This document shows, piece after piece, positions 1 through 19,672 of a stretch of DNA of 21,466 nt. Position 1 is the stretch's first letter. Every line of letters begins with the position of its first letter. The notes below the pieces were generated by a model, which saw nothing but the letters and a program-made list of their open reading frames with translations, was not told where the DNA came from and did no database searches. The stretch comes from a virus. Its lineage: Duplodnaviria > Heunggongvirae > Uroviricota > Caudoviricetes. The stretch is from positions 1 to 21,466 of IMG/VR virus record IMGVR_UViG_2703718792_000016, one strand, 5' to 3'. The position numbers were made by a program, and so were the translations under genes.

Positions 1-567
1 TATCGCGTCCTCAACAATGAATTTTGTGATGCGGTGCCTGGTGCCTCCAGGTGACGTTAACCAGTTAACAATTAACGCCGGATACAGAGAATCCACCCAT
101 AACACTGTTTTTGGTTTTAACTGTTCCGCGTGCGCTGAGCCGCATTCACCGCATCACAAAATTCACTTTAAAAAGGGCGGCAGAGCAGTCACGGAGTAGA
201 ACTGATACCGCCAAAAGTCACCAGAAAATTGATAACAGAGGGCGTTGTAGCGGGGTTGTCACTTAAGTGTATGGTCAACCTGACAACCCGGTGTCCTCAA
301 CGGGGAAGGAATAACCCCGCCATACTTACCGCCGCGCCATTTCGCGGAGTGCCACAACCGGAAGCGCACGGTCGACGAAAATTTAACGACAGGCTATCTA
401 TGAACCAGCTACCTCGCCGTGCGCTTTCGCGTTATGGTCTGACTTTTCAGGGAAATATCCTTTCAGTAAACTGTCAGTGCCGGATGCTCACCCGTGTCCG
501 GCGCACGTACTCCACCTTACCCGTGGAGAACTCCTTAATTACCAACCTTAGCTTCGTTGGTTAGCTA

Positions 568-3957: not shown

Positions 3958-4383
3958 GTGGCAAAAGTTTTTACACAAGAAGAGCGGGAAAAAATTAAAG
4001 GGCAGGTTGTTGAACTTGTACGCCAGAGTGGGCGCGAGACGTTACGGCAACTGGAAGCCAAGACAGGTGCGACAAGATATCTGATGAGTGTTCTCGCCAG
4101 AGAGCTGGTTGCCAGTGGCGGTGTATACAATTCTGGCTACGGGTTATTCCCGTCTGAACAGGCTCGTAAAGACTGGCAAAACGCCCGCAAAAAATTATCG
4201 AGGGCAAAGCTGAAGAAACCGGTTGTGGTTGATCCTGACCTTATATGGTCATTACCAGATGGAGAAATACGTCGCTACGACAGGCACCTGAATATAATCT
4301 GTCGCGAGTGCCGGGAGAGCGAAGTTATGCAGCGCATACTGGCATTTTATCAAGGAAATGTTAGGTATTTTAGACGTTACTAG
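3958..4383 (+). CDS. hypothetical protein (141 aa), GTG start, immediately after the replication gene
   Basis: ORF with AGGAGG Shine-Dalgarno directly upstream of the GTG; basic, Cys-containing C-terminus; no family recognised. Confidence 0.55.
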   Translation: MAKVFTQEEREKIKGQVVELVRQSGRETLRQLEAKTGATRYLMSVLARELVASGGVYNSGYGLFPSEQARKDWQNARKKLSRAKLKKPVVVDPDLIWSLPDGEIRRYDRHLNIICRECRESEVMQRILAFYQGNVRYFRRY

Positions 4384-4611
4384 ATTAAAGAGCATTAGTT
4401 CAGATGTGAATTGACATTTTCATGGCGCAGGGTAGAGCTAGCGTGGTAGTTTTCTTTGTGCCAGAAACGGCATTTGCAAATATGGCCATGCGCTGTCACT
4501 TAGAGAGGAGCACAGGATTTACCTGTGCTCAAGTTCAATAGTAAAGATGAAAATATTATGAAGATGGTGGGGGAAATGTAACTGCAGTGATACTTTGTGC
4601 AAAAGTAGTAA

Positions 4612-5118
4612 TTATTTCTTTGCAGCCAGAATCAGGCCGTCAAGCCACTCCTGGTGACCATTGAGCATTGGGTTCGGACGAGTATTTGCCAGGTCTTTTG
4701 CTGGAACTCCGTTCTGCGTTTCCTGTGTCAGGATACGGAGTCTGTTACCCGAGAGTTCCTCCAGTAGCCACGCATGATGAACATCTAGGCGTTGTACAGT
4801 ATCTTTTTCACCGGACCATCCGTGCCATGCCAAACGAGCAGGTTTACCTTCAGTAGGTGGAATAAATTCCACGACCTGAGCTTCAACCGGAAATCCAAAT
4901 GTGCTGAAGTAAAAGCGCACGCCATTTTCCAGCTCCGGACCTTTATTGTTATAAAAGCGCACATCTGCTGAATTTTTATAGTATTCCGGCCATAGTAATG
5001 GCTGACTAAGGAGTGGCCAAACATCATTGATGTTCAGACCGGAGATGATCATTTCATTAGACACAAAGTTATCAGTAAATCCCGGAACAAAGCCTTCTGG
5101 CCAGTGAATAGCGTTCAT
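4612..5118 (-). CDS. SRPBCC (Bet v1-like / polyketide cyclase-like) superfamily protein, cargo gene
   Basis: 168 aa from the ATG at 5118 (GGAGG upstream); the track ORF start at 5130 is a TTG extension. Superfamily call from overall sequence character, not a search. Confidence 0.6.
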   Translation of the reverse strand: MNAIHWPEGFVPGFTDNFVSNEMIISGLNINDVWPLLSQPLLWPEYYKNSADVRFYNNKGPELENGVRFYFSTFGFPVEAQVVEFIPPTEGKPARLAWHGWSGEKDTVQRLDVHHAWLLEELSGNRLRILTQETQNGVPAKDLANTRPNPMLNGHQEWLDGLILAAKK

Positions 5119-5253
5119 AAATGCCTCCAATTGCGGTAGTTAATTGTACTGGGTTTGCTGCGTTACGACCGCAACACGATGGCAGTGATTATTAGCGCAA
5201 TGAAGTTATAAGGCGAATTATGATTACTTATAATCTTAATAAGATAAATTATA

Positions 5254-6162
5254 TCAGGAGCCAGTATCTTGGCTAACTTCTACGCATAAAGCCCGAATCC
5301 ACTGATGGCTAGGGTCACGATGAGTTCGTTCATGCCAGGCCATACTCTTGGTAAAGCCCGGAACTTTCAGGGGCAAAGGGAGTATGATTAGATCGTTGTT
5401 AGTCAGGACCATGCGGTGGGGGACAACAGCGATCATATCAGTCACTTGCAATATATCAGGAACTACTTGAAAACTATTAACTGACATGCCTACTCGTCGT
5501 GTCAGACTGAGCTTAGCCAGTGCTTCATCTGTAACACCGGAGAAGCTACCTTCTGAAGACACCAGAATATGTTCCTGTTTGCAAAATTGTTCGAGAGTCA
5601 TTTCTGAATTCGCTGACAACGGATGATTCCGTCGTGCTATGCAAACATAATCTTCTTCATAAAGTGCTCTGCCGTGCAGCTCTCCGGGAGTGGTTTGTGG
5701 TGTTACCAAAGCCAGATCAACTTCTCCCTGAGATAACTGCTGATATATTCGTTTATTGTCTACAGGCCGCACAGAGATTTTAATATTCGGTGCTCGATGT
5801 TTCAGCGCAGCCATCAATGGGACAACAACAGCCTTAACTGCATAGTCCGTTGCGACAATGGTATAAGTTAGTTCTGCCGTCATGGGGTCAAATTTACTTG
5901 GTTTCAGCAGAATCGTGATATCGGTGAGAATTTGTTTTACCGGCATAGCAAGTTCTTTAGCACGGAGTGTGGGAACCATACCGTGACTGGTGCGAACAAA
6001 GAGAGGATCGCAAAAATAATCACGTAATCGAATAAGCATGCCACTGACAGCGGGCTGCGTCAGGGAAAGTCGCTGCGCAGCCCGAGTCACGCTTCCCTCA
6101 TCCATTAACGCATCAAAGGTCTTAAGTAAGTTAAGGTCGAGGGTTTTGATATCATTTTTCAT
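5254..6162 (-). CDS. LysR-family transcriptional regulator
   Basis: 302 aa; N-terminal HTH signature (...LNLLKTFDALMDEGSVTRAAQRLSLTQPAVSGMLIRLRD...) and a C-terminal substrate-binding-type domain of typical length. Confidence 0.9.
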   Translation of the reverse strand: MKNDIKTLDLNLLKTFDALMDEGSVTRAAQRLSLTQPAVSGMLIRLRDYFCDPLFVRTSHGMVPTLRAKELAMPVKQILTDITILLKPSKFDPMTAELTYTIVATDYAVKAVVVPLMAALKHRAPNIKISVRPVDNKRIYQQLSQGEVDLALVTPQTTPGELHGRALYEEDYVCIARRNHPLSANSEMTLEQFCKQEHILVSSEGSFSGVTDEALAKLSLTRRVGMSVNSFQVVPDILQVTDMIAVVPHRMVLTNNDLIILPLPLKVPGFTKSMAWHERTHRDPSHQWIRALCVEVSQDTGS

Positions 6163-6493
6163 AATGAGGTCACCTGACAGATATAAAAATGTTGATTGAG
6201 GCTAATTGCCCCGATGAAGGTTGTCGAGGGGAACCAGGAGTTTTTTCTTTTGGGTGATTTCCATTGCTGGATAGTTCCCTTGTACAGATAAGTCCGTTCT
6301 TCGCACAAAGCGGACTGGAAGGTTAGCTTGAGTCGGACTTTGCGTATTAAAAGAAGTGCTGGTGGTGACTGGTTCTTTAGCCCCATTTCCCCAGAAAAAA
6401 TCAGAGAAACTATACCCAATAGTTGTATTGATTCACTGACGAGACGGCCTCATATTGATAGGGACTAGTGTGCATCCAATACAGGAGGTTGTT

Positions 6494-6583
6494 GTGCTGG
6501 TTCTCAAATGTGCGCTGGCTATTGCGGCTGTAATGGCAATTTATTGTCTTGCTGTTGTTCTTATGGATCGCCTTTCTGATTGA
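6494..6583 (+). CDS. small hydrophobic peptide (29 aa, VLVLKCALAIAAVMAIYCLAVVLMDRLSD), possible membrane peptide or type I toxin-like
   Basis: Not in the ORF track; GTG start with AGGAGG 6 nt upstream; one predicted transmembrane helix with a charged C-terminus; divergent from the LysR gene. Confidence 0.35.
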   Translation: MLVLKCALAIAAVMAIYCLAVVLMDRLSD

Positions 6584-6737
6584 TTTCATATTGGCGAGGT
6601 AACGGTAGTTAAGTAGAATTGCTGCGGGTGCTTGAGGCTATCTGCCTCGGGCATGAACACCAACGGCAGATAGAGAAAAGCCCCAGTTAACATTACGCGT
6701 CCTGCAAGACGTTTAACATTAATCTGAGGCCATATCT

Positions 6738-6797
6738 ATGCGACACATAGAGATTAGCCTCTTACGGACCGAAAGGTCAAGGAGAAGCAGGCTATGA
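6738..6797 (+). CDS. mok-like leader ORF overlapping the hok start
   Basis: 19-codon ORF whose stop overlaps the hok ATG (ATGA), the kind of coupling seen in hok/mok loci. Speculative. Confidence 0.25.
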   Translation: MRHIEISLLRTERSRRSRL

Positions 6798-6949
6798 AGC
6801 AGCAAAAGGCGATGTTAATCGCCCTGATCGTCATCTGTTTAACCGTCATAGTGACGGCACTGGTAACGAGGAAAGACCTCTGCGAGGTACGAATCCGAAC
6901 CGGCCAGACGGAGGTCGCTGTCTTCACAGCTTACGAACCTGAGGAGTAA
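6794..6949 (+). CDS. hokD: Hok/Gef-family type I toxin (HokD/RelF-like)
   Basis: 51 aa MKQQKAMLIALIVICLTVIVTALVTRKDLCEVRIRTGQTEVAVFTAYEPEE; aligns with R1 Hok ([20 protein letters not shown]) and matches my recollection of E. coli RelF/HokD; GGAG Shine-Dalgarno upstream. Confidence 0.85.
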   Translation: MKQQKAMLIALIVICLTVIVTALVTRKDLCEVRIRTGQTEVAVFTAYEPEE

Positions 6950-6987
6950 GAGACCAGGCGAGGGAGAAATCCCTCGCCACCTCTGAT

Positions 6988-7395
6988 GTGTCAGGCATCC
7001 TCAACGCACCCGCACGTAACCCGCTTCGGCGGGTTTTGTTTTTTCCTGGCATTCTGGTTTACAATTCGCACGCCAGCCTGAACAACTGGCACCTGCTGCG
7101 CCAGCAGAGACAACCGATGGCGCGCGATACCAAATTACACAATTCTAATGATTCTGCCGTCTTTGCCAGTAGGTGCGGACGGCGTTTTCACGCATTCAAA
7201 TCAGACTGGTTCCAGCATCCTCCATGCACTGAAGAGCAGGCGGAATGGATAATTCAGTGTTACCGCAGGCGCGGATACGAGGTTAAGAAAGCTCTTAGCC
7301 TCGACTACCGTCACTGGATAATCTCAGTCAGACTCCCTTACTCCGAACGCCCACCGCGTTCATCCCGCACATTCCAGCAACGCATCTGGAGGTAA
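6988..7395 (+). CDS. hypothetical protein in the nin-like region (possibly Rem-like); start uncertain (GTG 6988 or ATG 7117)
   Basis: ORF ends 1 nt before the DUF968 gene start; preceded by a stem-loop (6959-6976) after hok. A 92-aa product from 7117 is equally possible. Confidence 0.45.
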   Translation: MSGILNAPARNPLRRVLFFPGILVYNSHASLNNWHLLRQQRQPMARDTKLHNSNDSAVFASRCGRRFHAFKSDWFQHPPCTEEQAEWIIQCYRRRGYEVKKALSLDYRHWIISVRLPYSERPPRSSRTFQQRIWR

Positions 7396-9713: not shown

Positions 9714-9789
9714 GGCCCTTTAGCTCAGTGGTGAGAGCGAGCGACTCATAATCGCCAGGTCGCTGGTTCAAATCCAGCAAGGGCCACCA
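9714..9789 (+). tRNA. tRNA with CAT anticodon, most similar to tRNA-Ile2 (lysidine, ileX/ileZ-like); Met not excluded
   Basis: 76 nt; cloverleaf with 7-bp acceptor stem GGCCCTT/AAGGGCC, anticodon loop CTCATAA, T-loop TTCAAAT, CCA encoded; close to my recollection of E. coli ileX. Confidence 0.85.
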
Positions 9790-9790
9790 A

Positions 9791-9867
9791 CCGCCACTAG
9801 CTCATCAGGAAAGAGCGTCAACCCTTTAAGTTGAGTGTGCGAGGTTCGAGTCCCCGGTGGCGGTCCA
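9791..9867 (+). tRNA. tRNA-like gene with non-canonical anticodon loop CCTTTAA (formal anticodon TTT, Lys); isotype uncertain
   Basis: 77 nt; acceptor stem CCGCCAC/GTGGCGG, T-loop TTCGAGT, CCA encoded, but C at position 33 and an A-C mismatch in the T-stem. Confidence 0.55.
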
Positions 9868-9869
9868 GT

Positions 9870-9945
<76 letters not shown>

Positions 9946-9948
9946 TAT

Positions 9949-10023
<75 letters not shown>

Positions 10024-12642: not shown

Positions 12643-13107
12643 TGTTTTGTTATAAAGGTGTTGATGGTTGTGTTAGGGGGGATTTAACAAAAAGCCAGTT
12701 CTGGACTTTATAGTGTGCTCAGATCATGGCCAAAAACGATTTCTGTGATAAATATTTTGAATATTATTTACAGGTAAATGACGTGGGTCGCATGAATGAA
12801 AATATTACAATAGAGTATTAAGTATATGCTCATATTGTATGGGCTGAGAAGGCAAAACACGGTAATTCCTTATGTTGCTGTGATACCTGATTGGCAGAAT
12901 AGTTATTTGGTCTTGAGTATATAGTCAGCGTTTTTTGTTCAGTAATAGATCTTTCAGTTAAAAACAATAAATAGCGTGATTATTTCTGTTTGTTATTTGT
13001 ATTTTTGTTTGTTGTTTTATTGTCTTTCTGTGGAGGGGGGAGTATTGTTCCCTTATTAAGGGCAGGTAAATTTAGAATGGTAATCTGTAGATAATTGGAG
13101 GTCACTT

Positions 13108-18352: not shown

Positions 18353-19672
18353 GTGACAGCAGAGCTGCGTAATCTCCCGCATATTGCCAGTATGGCCTTT
18401 AATGAGCCGCTGATGCTTGAACCCGCCTATGCGCGGGTTTTCTTTTGTGCGCTTGCAGGCCAGCTTGGGATCAGCCGCCTGACGGATGCGGTATCCGGCG
18501 ACAGCCTGACTGCCGGAGAGGCACCCGCGGCGCTGGCGTTATCCGGTGATGATGACGGACCACGACAGGCCCGCAGTTATCAGGTCATGAACGGCATCGC
18601 CGTGCTGCCGGTGTCCGGCACGCTGGTCAGTCGGACGCGGGCGCTGCAGCCGTATTCGGGGATGACCGGTTACAACGGCATTATCGCCCGTCTGCAACAG
18701 GCTGCCAGCGACCCGATGGTGGACGGCATTCTGCTCGATATGGATACGCCAGGCGGGATGGTGGCAGGGGCATTTGACTGCGCTGACATCATCGCCCGTG
18801 TGCGTGACATAAAGCCGGTATGGGCGCTGGCCAACGACATGAACTGCAGTGCAGGTCAGTTGCTTGCCAGCGCCGCCTCCCGGCGTCTGGTCACGCAGAC
18901 CGCCCGGACAGGCTCCATCGGCGTCATGATGGCTCACAGTAATTACGGTGCTGCGCTGGAGAAACAGGGCGTGGAAATCACGCTGATTTACAGCGGCAGC
19001 CATAAGGTGGATGGCAACCCCTACAGCCATCTACCGGATGATGTCCGGGAAACACTGCAGTCCCGGATGGATGCAACCCGCCGGATGTTTGCACAGAAGG
19101 TGTCGGCATATACCGGCCTGTCCGTGCAGGCTGTGCTGGATACCGAGGCTGCAGTGTACAGCGGTCAGGAGGCCATTGATGCCGGACTGGCTGATGAACT
19201 TGTTAACAGTACCGATGCGATCACCGTCATGCGTGATGCACTGGATGCACGTAAATCCCGTCTCTCAGGAGGGCGAATGACCAAAGAGACTCAATCAACA
19301 ACTGTTTCAGCCACTGCTTCGCAGGCTGACGTTACTGGCGTGGTGCAAGCGACGGAGGGCGAGCACGCCAGCGCTGCGCAGCCGGACGTGAACGCGCAGA
19401 TCACCGCAGCGGTTGCGGCAGAAAACAGTCGCATTATGGGGATCCTCAACTGTGAGGAGGCTCACGGACGCGAAGAACAGGCACGCGTGCTGGCCGAAAC
19501 CCCCGGTATGACCGTGGAAACGGCCCGCCGCATTCTGGCAGCTGCACCACAGAGTGCACAGGCGCGCAGTGACACTGCGCTGGATCGTCTGATGCAGGGG
19601 GCACCGGCACCGCTGGCTGCAGGTAACCCGGCATCTGATGCCGTTAACGATTTGCTGAACACACCAGTGTAA
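18353..19672 (+). CDS. C: prohead protease / scaffold protein C
   Basis: 439 aa from the GTG at 18353 (VTAELRNLPHIASMAFNEPLMLEPAYARVFF...); same coordinates relative to B as in lambda. The track ORF start at 18206 is an upstream over-extension. Confidence 0.9.
   Translation: MTAELRNLPHIASMAFNEPLMLEPAYARVFFCALAGQLGISRLTDAVSGDSLTAGEAPAALALSGDDDGPRQARSYQVMNGIAVLPVSGTLVSRTRALQPYSGMTGYNGIIARLQQAASDPMVDGILLDMDTPGGMVAGAFDCADIIARVRDIKPVWALANDMNCSAGQLLASAASRRLVTQTARTGSIGVMMAHSNYGAALEKQGVEITLIYSGSHKVDGNPYSHLPDDVRETLQSRMDATRRMFAQKVSAYTGLSVQAVLDTEAAVYSGQEAIDAGLADELVNSTDAITVMRDALDARKSRLSGGRMTKETQSTTVSATASQADVTGVVQATEGEHASAAQPDVNAQITAAVAAENSRIMGILNCEEAHGREEQARVLAETPGMTVETARRILAAAPQSAQARSDTALDRLMQGAPAPLAAGNPASDAVNDLLNTPV
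19067..19672 (+). CDS. nu3: scaffolding protein Nu3 (in-frame internal start within C)
   Basis: ATG at 19067 in the C frame gives a 201-aa product sharing the C stop; position corresponds to lambda Nu3. Confidence 0.65.
   Translation: MDATRRMFAQKVSAYTGLSVQAVLDTEAAVYSGQEAIDAGLADELVNSTDAITVMRDALDARKSRLSGGRMTKETQSTTVSATASQADVTGVVQATEGEHASAAQPDVNAQITAAVAAENSRIMGILNCEEAHGREEQARVLAETPGMTVETARRILAAAPQSAQARSDTALDRLMQGAPAPLAAGNPASDAVNDLLNTPV

Follow-up and report, generated by a model that had tools for sequence, protein, structure and literature searches.

A small open reading frame beside the hok locus of a Qin-like prophage is very probably a conserved gene for a single-pass membrane peptide

The virus record IMGVR_UViG_2703718792_000016 of IMG/VR, analyzed here along its 21,466 nucleotides (the window), is a lambdoid, Qin-like prophage in which a small open reading frame (ORF) lies on the plus strand between a LysR-family gene (5254-6162, minus strand) and the toxin gene hok (6794-6949). 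Very probably this ORF is a true, conserved gene whose product is a tiny peptide with one membrane pass. The ORF runs from GTG at 6494-6496 to TGA at 6581-6583 and is composed of 29 codons and a stop, as read from the sequence and from the list of ORFs, with the product VLVLKCALAIAAVMAIYCLAVVLMDRLSD. Members of the same family have already been seen, as hypothetical proteins in RefSeq and, in one case, in a published ribosome-profiling catalogue, and they are uncharacterized.

Results

The ORF is preceded by the Shine-Dalgarno sequence AGGAGG (6483-6488, plus strand), which is separated from the GTG by five nucleotides (TTGTT); the plus-strand letters spanning both elements are ACAGGAGGTTGTTGTGCTGGTT. 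A preliminary description of this DNA had placed a GTG-initiated ORF with this motif between the LysR gene and hok. Its coordinates, peptide, motif and location agree with ours, and only the distance between motif and start, given as 6 nt, had to be corrected to 5 nt. The mechanical list of ORFs gives the frame as 6455..6583 (42 amino acids), starting from an upstream TTG. We found no ribosome-binding site for this upstream start, the residues of the TTG extension differ completely between lineages, and in one locus (L024) a 2-nt insertion 5' of the ribosome-binding site puts the extension out of frame. We therefore consider GTG 6494 as the start.

The ORF and its ribosome-binding site exceed chance expectation because of the AGGAGG and start codon statistics, the rare hydrophobicity of the peptide, and the conservation with a coding signature reported below. 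AGGAGG occurs six times on the plus strand of the window, and five of these occurrences have a start codon 4-9 nt downstream. Three of the five pairs open ORFs of 131-439 codons, and the others correspond to the small ORF and to an ORF of 33 codons within the structural gene region (19167-19280, plus strand; AGGAGG followed by ATG at about 19179). The peptide has one predicted transmembrane helix, at about residues 6-24, followed by the charged C-terminal tail DRLSD. Its best 19-residue Kyte-Doolittle mean is 2.70, compared to 3.07 for the helix of Hok, and a hydrophobicity of at least 2.6 is found in just 2 of the 400 stop-to-stop segments of 25-60 amino acids in the window. The single hydrophobic helix and the strong ribosome-binding site reported in the preliminary description are thus both confirmed, the former as a prediction. 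Separately, a T-rich stretch near position 13000 (12949-13094, plus strand) contains several hydrophobic stop-to-stop segments.

We collected two samples of homologous loci. The first, composed of viral contigs, was picked by peptide identity and is biased to low non-synonymous divergence (dN), and it was excluded from the substitution counts. The second was composed of IMG/VR loci retrieved through a 33-nt pattern taken from the promoter and 5' end of hok, without regard to the ORF, and of E. coli loci retrieved through DNA similarity. In the hok-anchored sample, three kinds of small ORF were detectable just 5' of the hok promoter, each encoding a hydrophobic peptide and equipped with its own ribosome-binding site: type A, which is the VLVLKCALAIAAVMAIYCLAVVLMDRLSD of the window, type B (MSDDISLAMEGALAVIAVVGVYCLVVFLMDRLGN, 34 amino acids) and type C (MTWPEAFTTVGIAMAVALVVYSICRWG, 27 amino acids).

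The type A ORF is intact in each of the 44 loci whose choice did not depend on it, and likewise in the full set of 99 type A loci collected, with no frameshift or nonsense allele. Among 15 DNA haplotypes we counted 12 synonymous and 12 non-synonymous alleles, over 21.7 synonymous and 62.3 non-synonymous sites, which corresponds to an omega of about 0.35 (binomial P = 0.0095). When the identical sites are read in the other two frames, the ratios of synonymous to non-synonymous alleles are 5:18 and 4:19, near the neutral expectation. The amino-acid changes are conservative (A/T/V, V/I, D/E/N and S/T). In four lineages with diverged upstream DNA, the conserved islands are the hexamer CATATT, the GGAG core and the GTG, and conservation is unbroken from the GTG on. 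The GGAG core occurs at constant spacing in each lineage, as GGAGG, GGGAGG, CAGGAGA or TGGAGA, and the GTG is kept along with it in every one. Conservation in related prophages had been proposed as a check of the preliminary description, and the ORF is indeed conserved in homologous prophage regions with substitutions of the coding type; non-conservation, which would argue against a gene, is hence not what we observed.

Among the deeper relatives, types A and B align over 28 residues as far as their common C-terminus with no gap, and 54% of these residues are identical (E = 5e-10). Between them, 8 codons are identical, 8 differ only synonymously and 13 are replacements, and the nucleotide identity at codon positions 1, 2 and 3 is 0.61, 0.82 and 0.50, respectively. 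The resulting dN/dS is about 0.31, with a synonymous divergence above 1. A profile of types A and B, searched against 1.84 billion representative proteins, returned 27 matches, all of the small-peptide family, including P0090 (MLAALKGFVAILAVVAIYCLVVVLMDRLSD) and P0095 (MLIIKGVLAIVIVVAIYCLVVTLWERLSD). The gene of P0090 (locus L224) lies directly 5' of mok/hok in a lambdoid prophage; relative to the window, one codon is inserted in frame, 11 codons are identical, 9 differ only synonymously and 7 are replacements. Invariant or nearly invariant in the family are K5, the IYCL motif (Y17-C18-L19) and the tail (D/E)(R/H)LSD. Types A and B were also compared with type C, and the hhalign probability was 2%, so type C was treated as unrelated.

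The distribution of the family is limited to Escherichia and Shigella, in lambdoid prophages of the Qin-like and Stx-like kinds. A word-indexed search of 5.8 billion proteins returned solely Escherichia entries, and a scan of the GTDB species representatives detected Escherichia and Shigella alone, together with three short contigs of metagenome-assembled genomes that are probably contamination. Within E. coli, the gene of the window lies in a conserved module (6292..6625, plus strand) that is found, over at least 80% of its length and with 88-93% identity, in 1655 of 5426 complete genomes, next to varied upstream cargo. Type B occurs in a further 672 E. coli genomes, including Stx-type prophages of O157:H7.

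Translation of a family member has been published. In O157:H7, type B is annotated by PGAP as WP_001278450.1, 245 nt 5' of hokD, and it corresponds to 'XECs145', one of the novel ORFs detected in E. coli O157:H7 Sakai by RNA-seq and ribosome profiling (Hücker et al. 2017, PLoS One, PMC5597208 supplements). According to S2 Table of that study (PMC5597208), its RNA and footprint levels, in reads per kilobase per million (RPKM), are 79.1 and 346.1 in lysogeny broth (LB), with a ribosome coverage value (RCV) of 4.35 and a coverage of 0.99; 121.3 and 150.1 in brain heart infusion (BHI), with an RCV of 1.14 and a coverage of 0.84; and 73.3 and 1.1 under BHI stress, with an RCV of 0.01 and a coverage of 0.37, all of these values being subject to the caveat that type B has several near-identical copies per genome. 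The authors classed XECs145 as 'real' and predicted that it localizes to the inner membrane (PMC5597208). The RNA and footprint values indicate that the homologue is transcribed and covered by ribosomes in an uninduced lysogen. Type B shares with the peptide of the window the C-terminal motif YCLxVxLMDRL, a single predicted helix and the position directly 5' of a prophage hok promoter. It differs in its length of 34 amino acids, its acidic N-terminal extension and its ATG start, and in its surroundings, where a small type C ORF closely precedes it, no promoter footprint is detectable, and a 22-bp palindrome stands before the hok promoter.

Upstream of the ORF in the window, we identified a putative promoter composed of the -35 hexamer TTGATT (6428..6433, plus strand), which is TTGAAT or TTGAAG in relatives, and, 17 nt further, the -10 hexamer CATATT (6451..6456, plus strand), which is invariant in nine aligned sequences. 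TTGAAx with the 17-nt spacing is kept in three of the four upstream lineages despite their diverged spacer and flanks, and is missing from the Escherichia albertii locus L023. CATATT is kept in all four, within surrounding DNA that has diverged. As judged from the position of these hexamers, transcription of the small gene would start at about 6463-6465 and leave a leader of about 30 nt.

The promoter scan placed the hok promoter, TTGGCG-17-TAGAAT, at 6591..6619 (plus strand), starting 8 nt past the stop codon of the small ORF. The hok mRNA leader, with mok and the Sok target region (6626..6796, plus strand), is matched over its full length by the Rfam family RF01794 'sok' (101.3 bits, E = 2.7e-22), and the start of this match at 6626 is consistent with a transcription start 6-7 nt past the hok -10. 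The hok gene itself (6794..6949, plus strand, from the list of ORFs) encodes a HokD-type toxin of 51 amino acids, which PGAP names 'type I toxin-antitoxin system toxin HokD' on an identical region. Since the small ORF ends 8 nt before the hok -35, it is wholly outside the hok transcript. The first convincing intrinsic terminator past the small ORF was found by the terminator scan after hok (7018..7045, plus strand; a 7-bp GC-rich stem with a T-run), and because none lies in between, read-through of the small-gene transcript across hok is probable. In some prophages the small ORF, except for its last 22-36 nt, is replaced by QueH, by a Sll1717-type ATPase or by a restriction-modification pair, all in front of the same hok promoter. 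In the Shigella flexneri locus L019 (CP182557.1, 1295-1602), the type A ORF is intact, homology stops just past its stop codon, and a DUF1971-like gene stands where hok would be.

The annotation of the gene is uneven. The preliminary description had called it unannotated, which is right for most RefSeq genomes of E. coli, where the ORF is left without annotation, but not for all of them. PGAP annotates it in some genomes as the 'hypothetical protein' WP_000960667.1, and the 'hypothetical protein' GCZ25347.1 is the exact peptide, with Met replacing the GTG-encoded first residue. The entries of the family in the protein collection bear solely 'hypothetical' or 'putative membrane protein' names and are all from Escherichia. 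Searches of Pfam, NCBIfam, PHROGs and PADLOC with types A, B and C returned nothing significant. No paper was found in a literature search with the peptide strings and the WP accessions, the peptide is absent from the Enterobacteriaceae microproteome supplements, and the peptides described in a preprint on small proteins of CFT073 could not be matched to the family.

The wider context of the gene is that of a mosaic prophage. Along the plus strand, a DUF977 gene (3958-4383) is followed by the small ORF and the hok locus, and these by a DUF968 gene, RusA, antiterminator Q, and the lysis and packaging genes. Two minus-strand cargo genes lie between the DUF977 gene and the small ORF, namely a SRPBCC or 'polyketide cyclase' gene (4612-5130) and the LysR-family gene (5254-6162); PADLOC recognized neither of the two cargo proteins. 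The interval from the DUF977 gene to the small-ORF/hok module (4384-6291), which we compared in loci L002-L009, L015-L017 and L223, is a cargo hotspot, and the module that bears the small gene is its conserved right flank. Elsewhere the module is preceded by a DUF5677 gene, by an S1 peptidase and a DUF2254 gene, by IS3, or by hypothetical genes, and the hotspot may also contain a Sll1717-type P-loop ATPase, QueH, or a cytosine methyltransferase with a NgoMIV-type endonuclease. The left edge of the module is the recombination boundary with this variable cargo and the right edge is the start of hok transcription. At the left boundary, where homology among prophages with different cargo begins, lies the hairpin GTCCGTT...AGCGGAC (6292..6315), with no T-run on either strand.

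The preliminary description had also stressed that the small ORF is divergent from the LysR gene. The arrangement is present in the window, but it is incidental, because the junction with LysR occurs in just 8 of the 5426 E. coli genomes and the module stands beside unrelated cargo in 1655. The same co-occurrence led us to reject the possibility that the small ORF is the target of the divergent LysR regulator.

Some further features of the region were observed. The approximately 135 nt that separate the putative promoter from the boundary hairpin (6292-6427) are about 90% conserved in the main lineage and absent from the other type A lineages. They are non-coding, because 1-nt and 14-nt indels are present, and they include the invariant 20-mer AGAAACTATACCCAATAGTT, which is able to form a small hairpin. 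Just 5' of the LysR start, 21 nt of the window (6193-6213, TGATTGAGGCTAATTGCCCCG) match the 5' end of the hok mRNA (6629-6649, TGCTTGAGGCTATCTGCCTCG) at 17 positions out of 21. This likeness may be what is left of a further hok locus carried with the cargo, or it may be due to chance (rough expectation of about 0.05 per 941 nt).

A perfect 22-bp palindrome, CGATATGGGAATTCCCATATCG, was found just 5' of the hok promoter in L124, L110, L119, L139 and L192. It occurs with type B and in some loci without a small ORF, is not followed by a T-run, and could act as an operator or as a site of processing. Type C, which has a GGAGG ribosome-binding site and is absent from the window, lies just 5' of hok or of a type A or B gene in many lambdoid prophages (before the hok pattern in L114, L123 and L129; at about 3880-3965 in L010; before type B in L124 and L171). 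It is left unannotated by PGAP in Xuzhou21 and has in-frame stops in L126 and L167. Two other features of the window are ordinary in Qin-like and Stx-like prophages: the small RNA DicF (175-226, minus strand; Rfam, 71.5 bits) and, beyond the gene of antiterminator Q, a cluster of four tRNA genes (9714-10020, plus strand).

Discussion

We consider it likely that the ORF is a true gene, encoding a peptide of 29 residues that spans the inner membrane once and belongs to a narrow family; the gene probably has its own promoter, and its product would act through a membrane partner. Its expression would most likely be served by a modest sigma-70 promoter, TTGATT-17-CATATT, followed by a leader of about 30 nt, the strong ribosome-binding site and the GTG, and the transcript would probably run on through the hok/sok locus. 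The member found in the window is probably expressed in the lysogen, like a moron-type accessory gene. With its approximately 19 hydrophobic residues and the conserved tail (D/E)(R/H)LSD, the peptide may enter the inner membrane as one helix and, by analogy with known small proteins, bind a larger membrane protein or complex rather than kill the cell. The closest models are MgtS, MgrB, AcrZ, PmrR, KdpF and CydX of E. coli and Salmonella, which modulate larger membrane proteins and similarly have about 30-50 amino acids, one helix and a strong ribosome-binding site. These proteins, too, are routinely missed by annotation (discussed in PMC10903887 and bioRxiv 10.64898/2026.09.28.754932). Unlike them, the family described here is prophage-borne and found in one genus, and it has no sequence similarity to them above the Pfam and NCBIfam thresholds; weak matches to KdpF and SecE concern types C and B, respectively, and are below the cut-offs.

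Several observations weigh against this reading. The putative promoter matches 8 of 12 consensus positions, which is below the threshold of the promoter scan; it is absent in L224, where the upstream gene abuts the ORF, and its -35 is missing from L023. The loci sampled for the substitution counts are closely related to each other and the allele counts are few. In the comparison of types A and B, one control frame has a ratio of synonymous to non-synonymous differences (pS/pN) like that of the coding frame, though it contains stop codons. The translation data concern XECs145, a homologue with 54% identity, and not the member found in the window. Finally, the gene is dispensable for hok, since some prophages keep merely its last 22-36 nt.

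A different role was suggested by the preliminary description, which regarded the peptide as typical of type I toxins. In that case a membrane-depolarizing peptide, with its mRNA held by an antisense or nearby small RNA, would form a second toxin-antitoxin unit beside hok/sok. The peptide has 29 amino acids (fewer than 60), a single hydrophobic helix (2.70 over its best 19 residues) and a charged tail, its gene occupies an intergenic prophage site immediately next to a true type I locus, and toxicity on overproduction is common among small hydrophobic peptides. Despite this, we regard a type I toxin as improbable. The likeness to Hok/Gef, Ldr, TisB, ZorO, ShoB, DinQ and Ibs consists of a short hydrophobic helix with a polar tail, together with the position beside hok/sok; the peptide of the window differs from these toxins in having no Hok homology, no antitoxin RNA that we could find and no long structured leader, and in the active translation of its homologue. 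The antisense RNA that the preliminary description had proposed to search for gave no computational signal: the promoter scan detected no sigma-70-like promoter on the opposite strand, no complementary repeat of at least 11 nt lies within 6160-7100 save the hairpin arms of the hok leader itself, and Rfam returned no match in 6200-6640 at E up to 10, save chance matches to small nucleolar RNAs and the signal recognition particle RNA. The leader would be only about 30 nt long, the predicted fold of 6462-6625 (-45.2 kcal/mol) is close to the mean of shuffled sequences (-41.6; z = -1.0), and the GGAGG sits in a hairpin loop. A conserved RNA structure at the ribosome-binding site was also considered, and rejected on the same z-score and because the hairpin, by inspection, loses three pairs in the L107 lineage. 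As for similarity to Hok, Pfam returned no match of the small peptide to Hok/Gef (PF01848) at E up to 10, and hhalign of the family alignment against the Hok of the window gave a probability of 0.9% over 5 aligned columns. In growing O157:H7, moreover, XECs145 belongs to the novel ORFs with heavier ribosome coverage (PMC5597208), and its RCV of 4.35 in LB makes tight translational repression unlikely. The ORF could also have been a decayed duplicate of hok, as suggested by 'GGTTAGCTTGAG' at 6321 and by the resemblance of YCLAVV in the peptide to ICLTVIV in Hok. We rejected this because there is no second RF01794 match (6200-6640, E up to 10) and no HOK_GEF match, and because of the hhalign result.

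The position of the gene raises the alternative of an accessory to hok/sok instead of an independent gene: the peptide could meet Hok in the membrane, or hok could be tuned as the ORF is transcribed and translated across the hok promoter. The stop codon is 8 nt before the hok -35 with no terminator between, types A, B and P0090 are all directly 5' of hok despite an A-B synonymous divergence above 1, and about two thirds of the sampled hok loci have some hydrophobic small ORF with a ribosome-binding site at this place, while about a third have none in our tally, which relied on regular expressions and undercounts. Such an accessory is nevertheless distinctly unlikely, as the gene is missing altogether, or reduced to its last codons, in many hok loci that share the promoter and leader, L019 of Shigella flexneri has the intact ORF with no hok downstream, and the linkage could come from the shared ancestry of a mosaic module. 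A purely cis-acting role is further disfavored by the selection at the amino-acid level. This selection also bears on whether there is a gene at all. The stretch could be conserved as DNA or RNA, for instance because it belongs to the hok promoter as an upstream element, serves as a module for recombination, or encodes a non-coding RNA, with an incidental reading frame. Consistent with this, conservation among close relatives is about 90% over the whole of 6292-6625, also where it is clearly non-coding, the terminal 22-36 nt of the ORF stay with the hok promoter even where the rest is replaced, and most annotation pipelines skip the ORF. We consider this alternative very improbable. In diverged lineages, conservation starts sharply at the ribosome-binding site and start codon, and substitutions are enriched at third codon positions in the coding frame only. 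The sole change in ORF length is one in-frame codon, compared to 1-nt and 14-nt indels in the flanks, none of the 99 loci has a frameshift or nonsense allele, and the homologue XECs145 bears ribosome footprints (PMC5597208).

The gene for a small membrane peptide that we favor, or most of its module, is present in approximately 30% of complete E. coli genomes (1655 out of 5426), yet it is usually left unannotated. The small ORF is a clean case, open to testing, that enlarges the small membrane proteome of prophages. Its main appeal lies in its prevalence and in its constant place beside hok/sok. The site of the gene is the conserved right flank of a hotspot that exchanges defence-like genes, beside a classic toxin-antitoxin locus. 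Going further, prophage hok/sok loci might have a third, protein component, in which small peptides (about 30 residues; types A and B, and perhaps the unrelated type C) modulate Hok, for example through helix-helix immunity or priming, or the peptide might be a membrane toxin or exclusion factor of lysogens that is independent of an antitoxin RNA; we hold these possibilities to be long shots. If the peptide has no such effect, the small ORF would be one more small protein of undefined role. If it is true that the peptide affects Hok, phage exclusion or the membrane physiology of the lysogen, this would be new biology.

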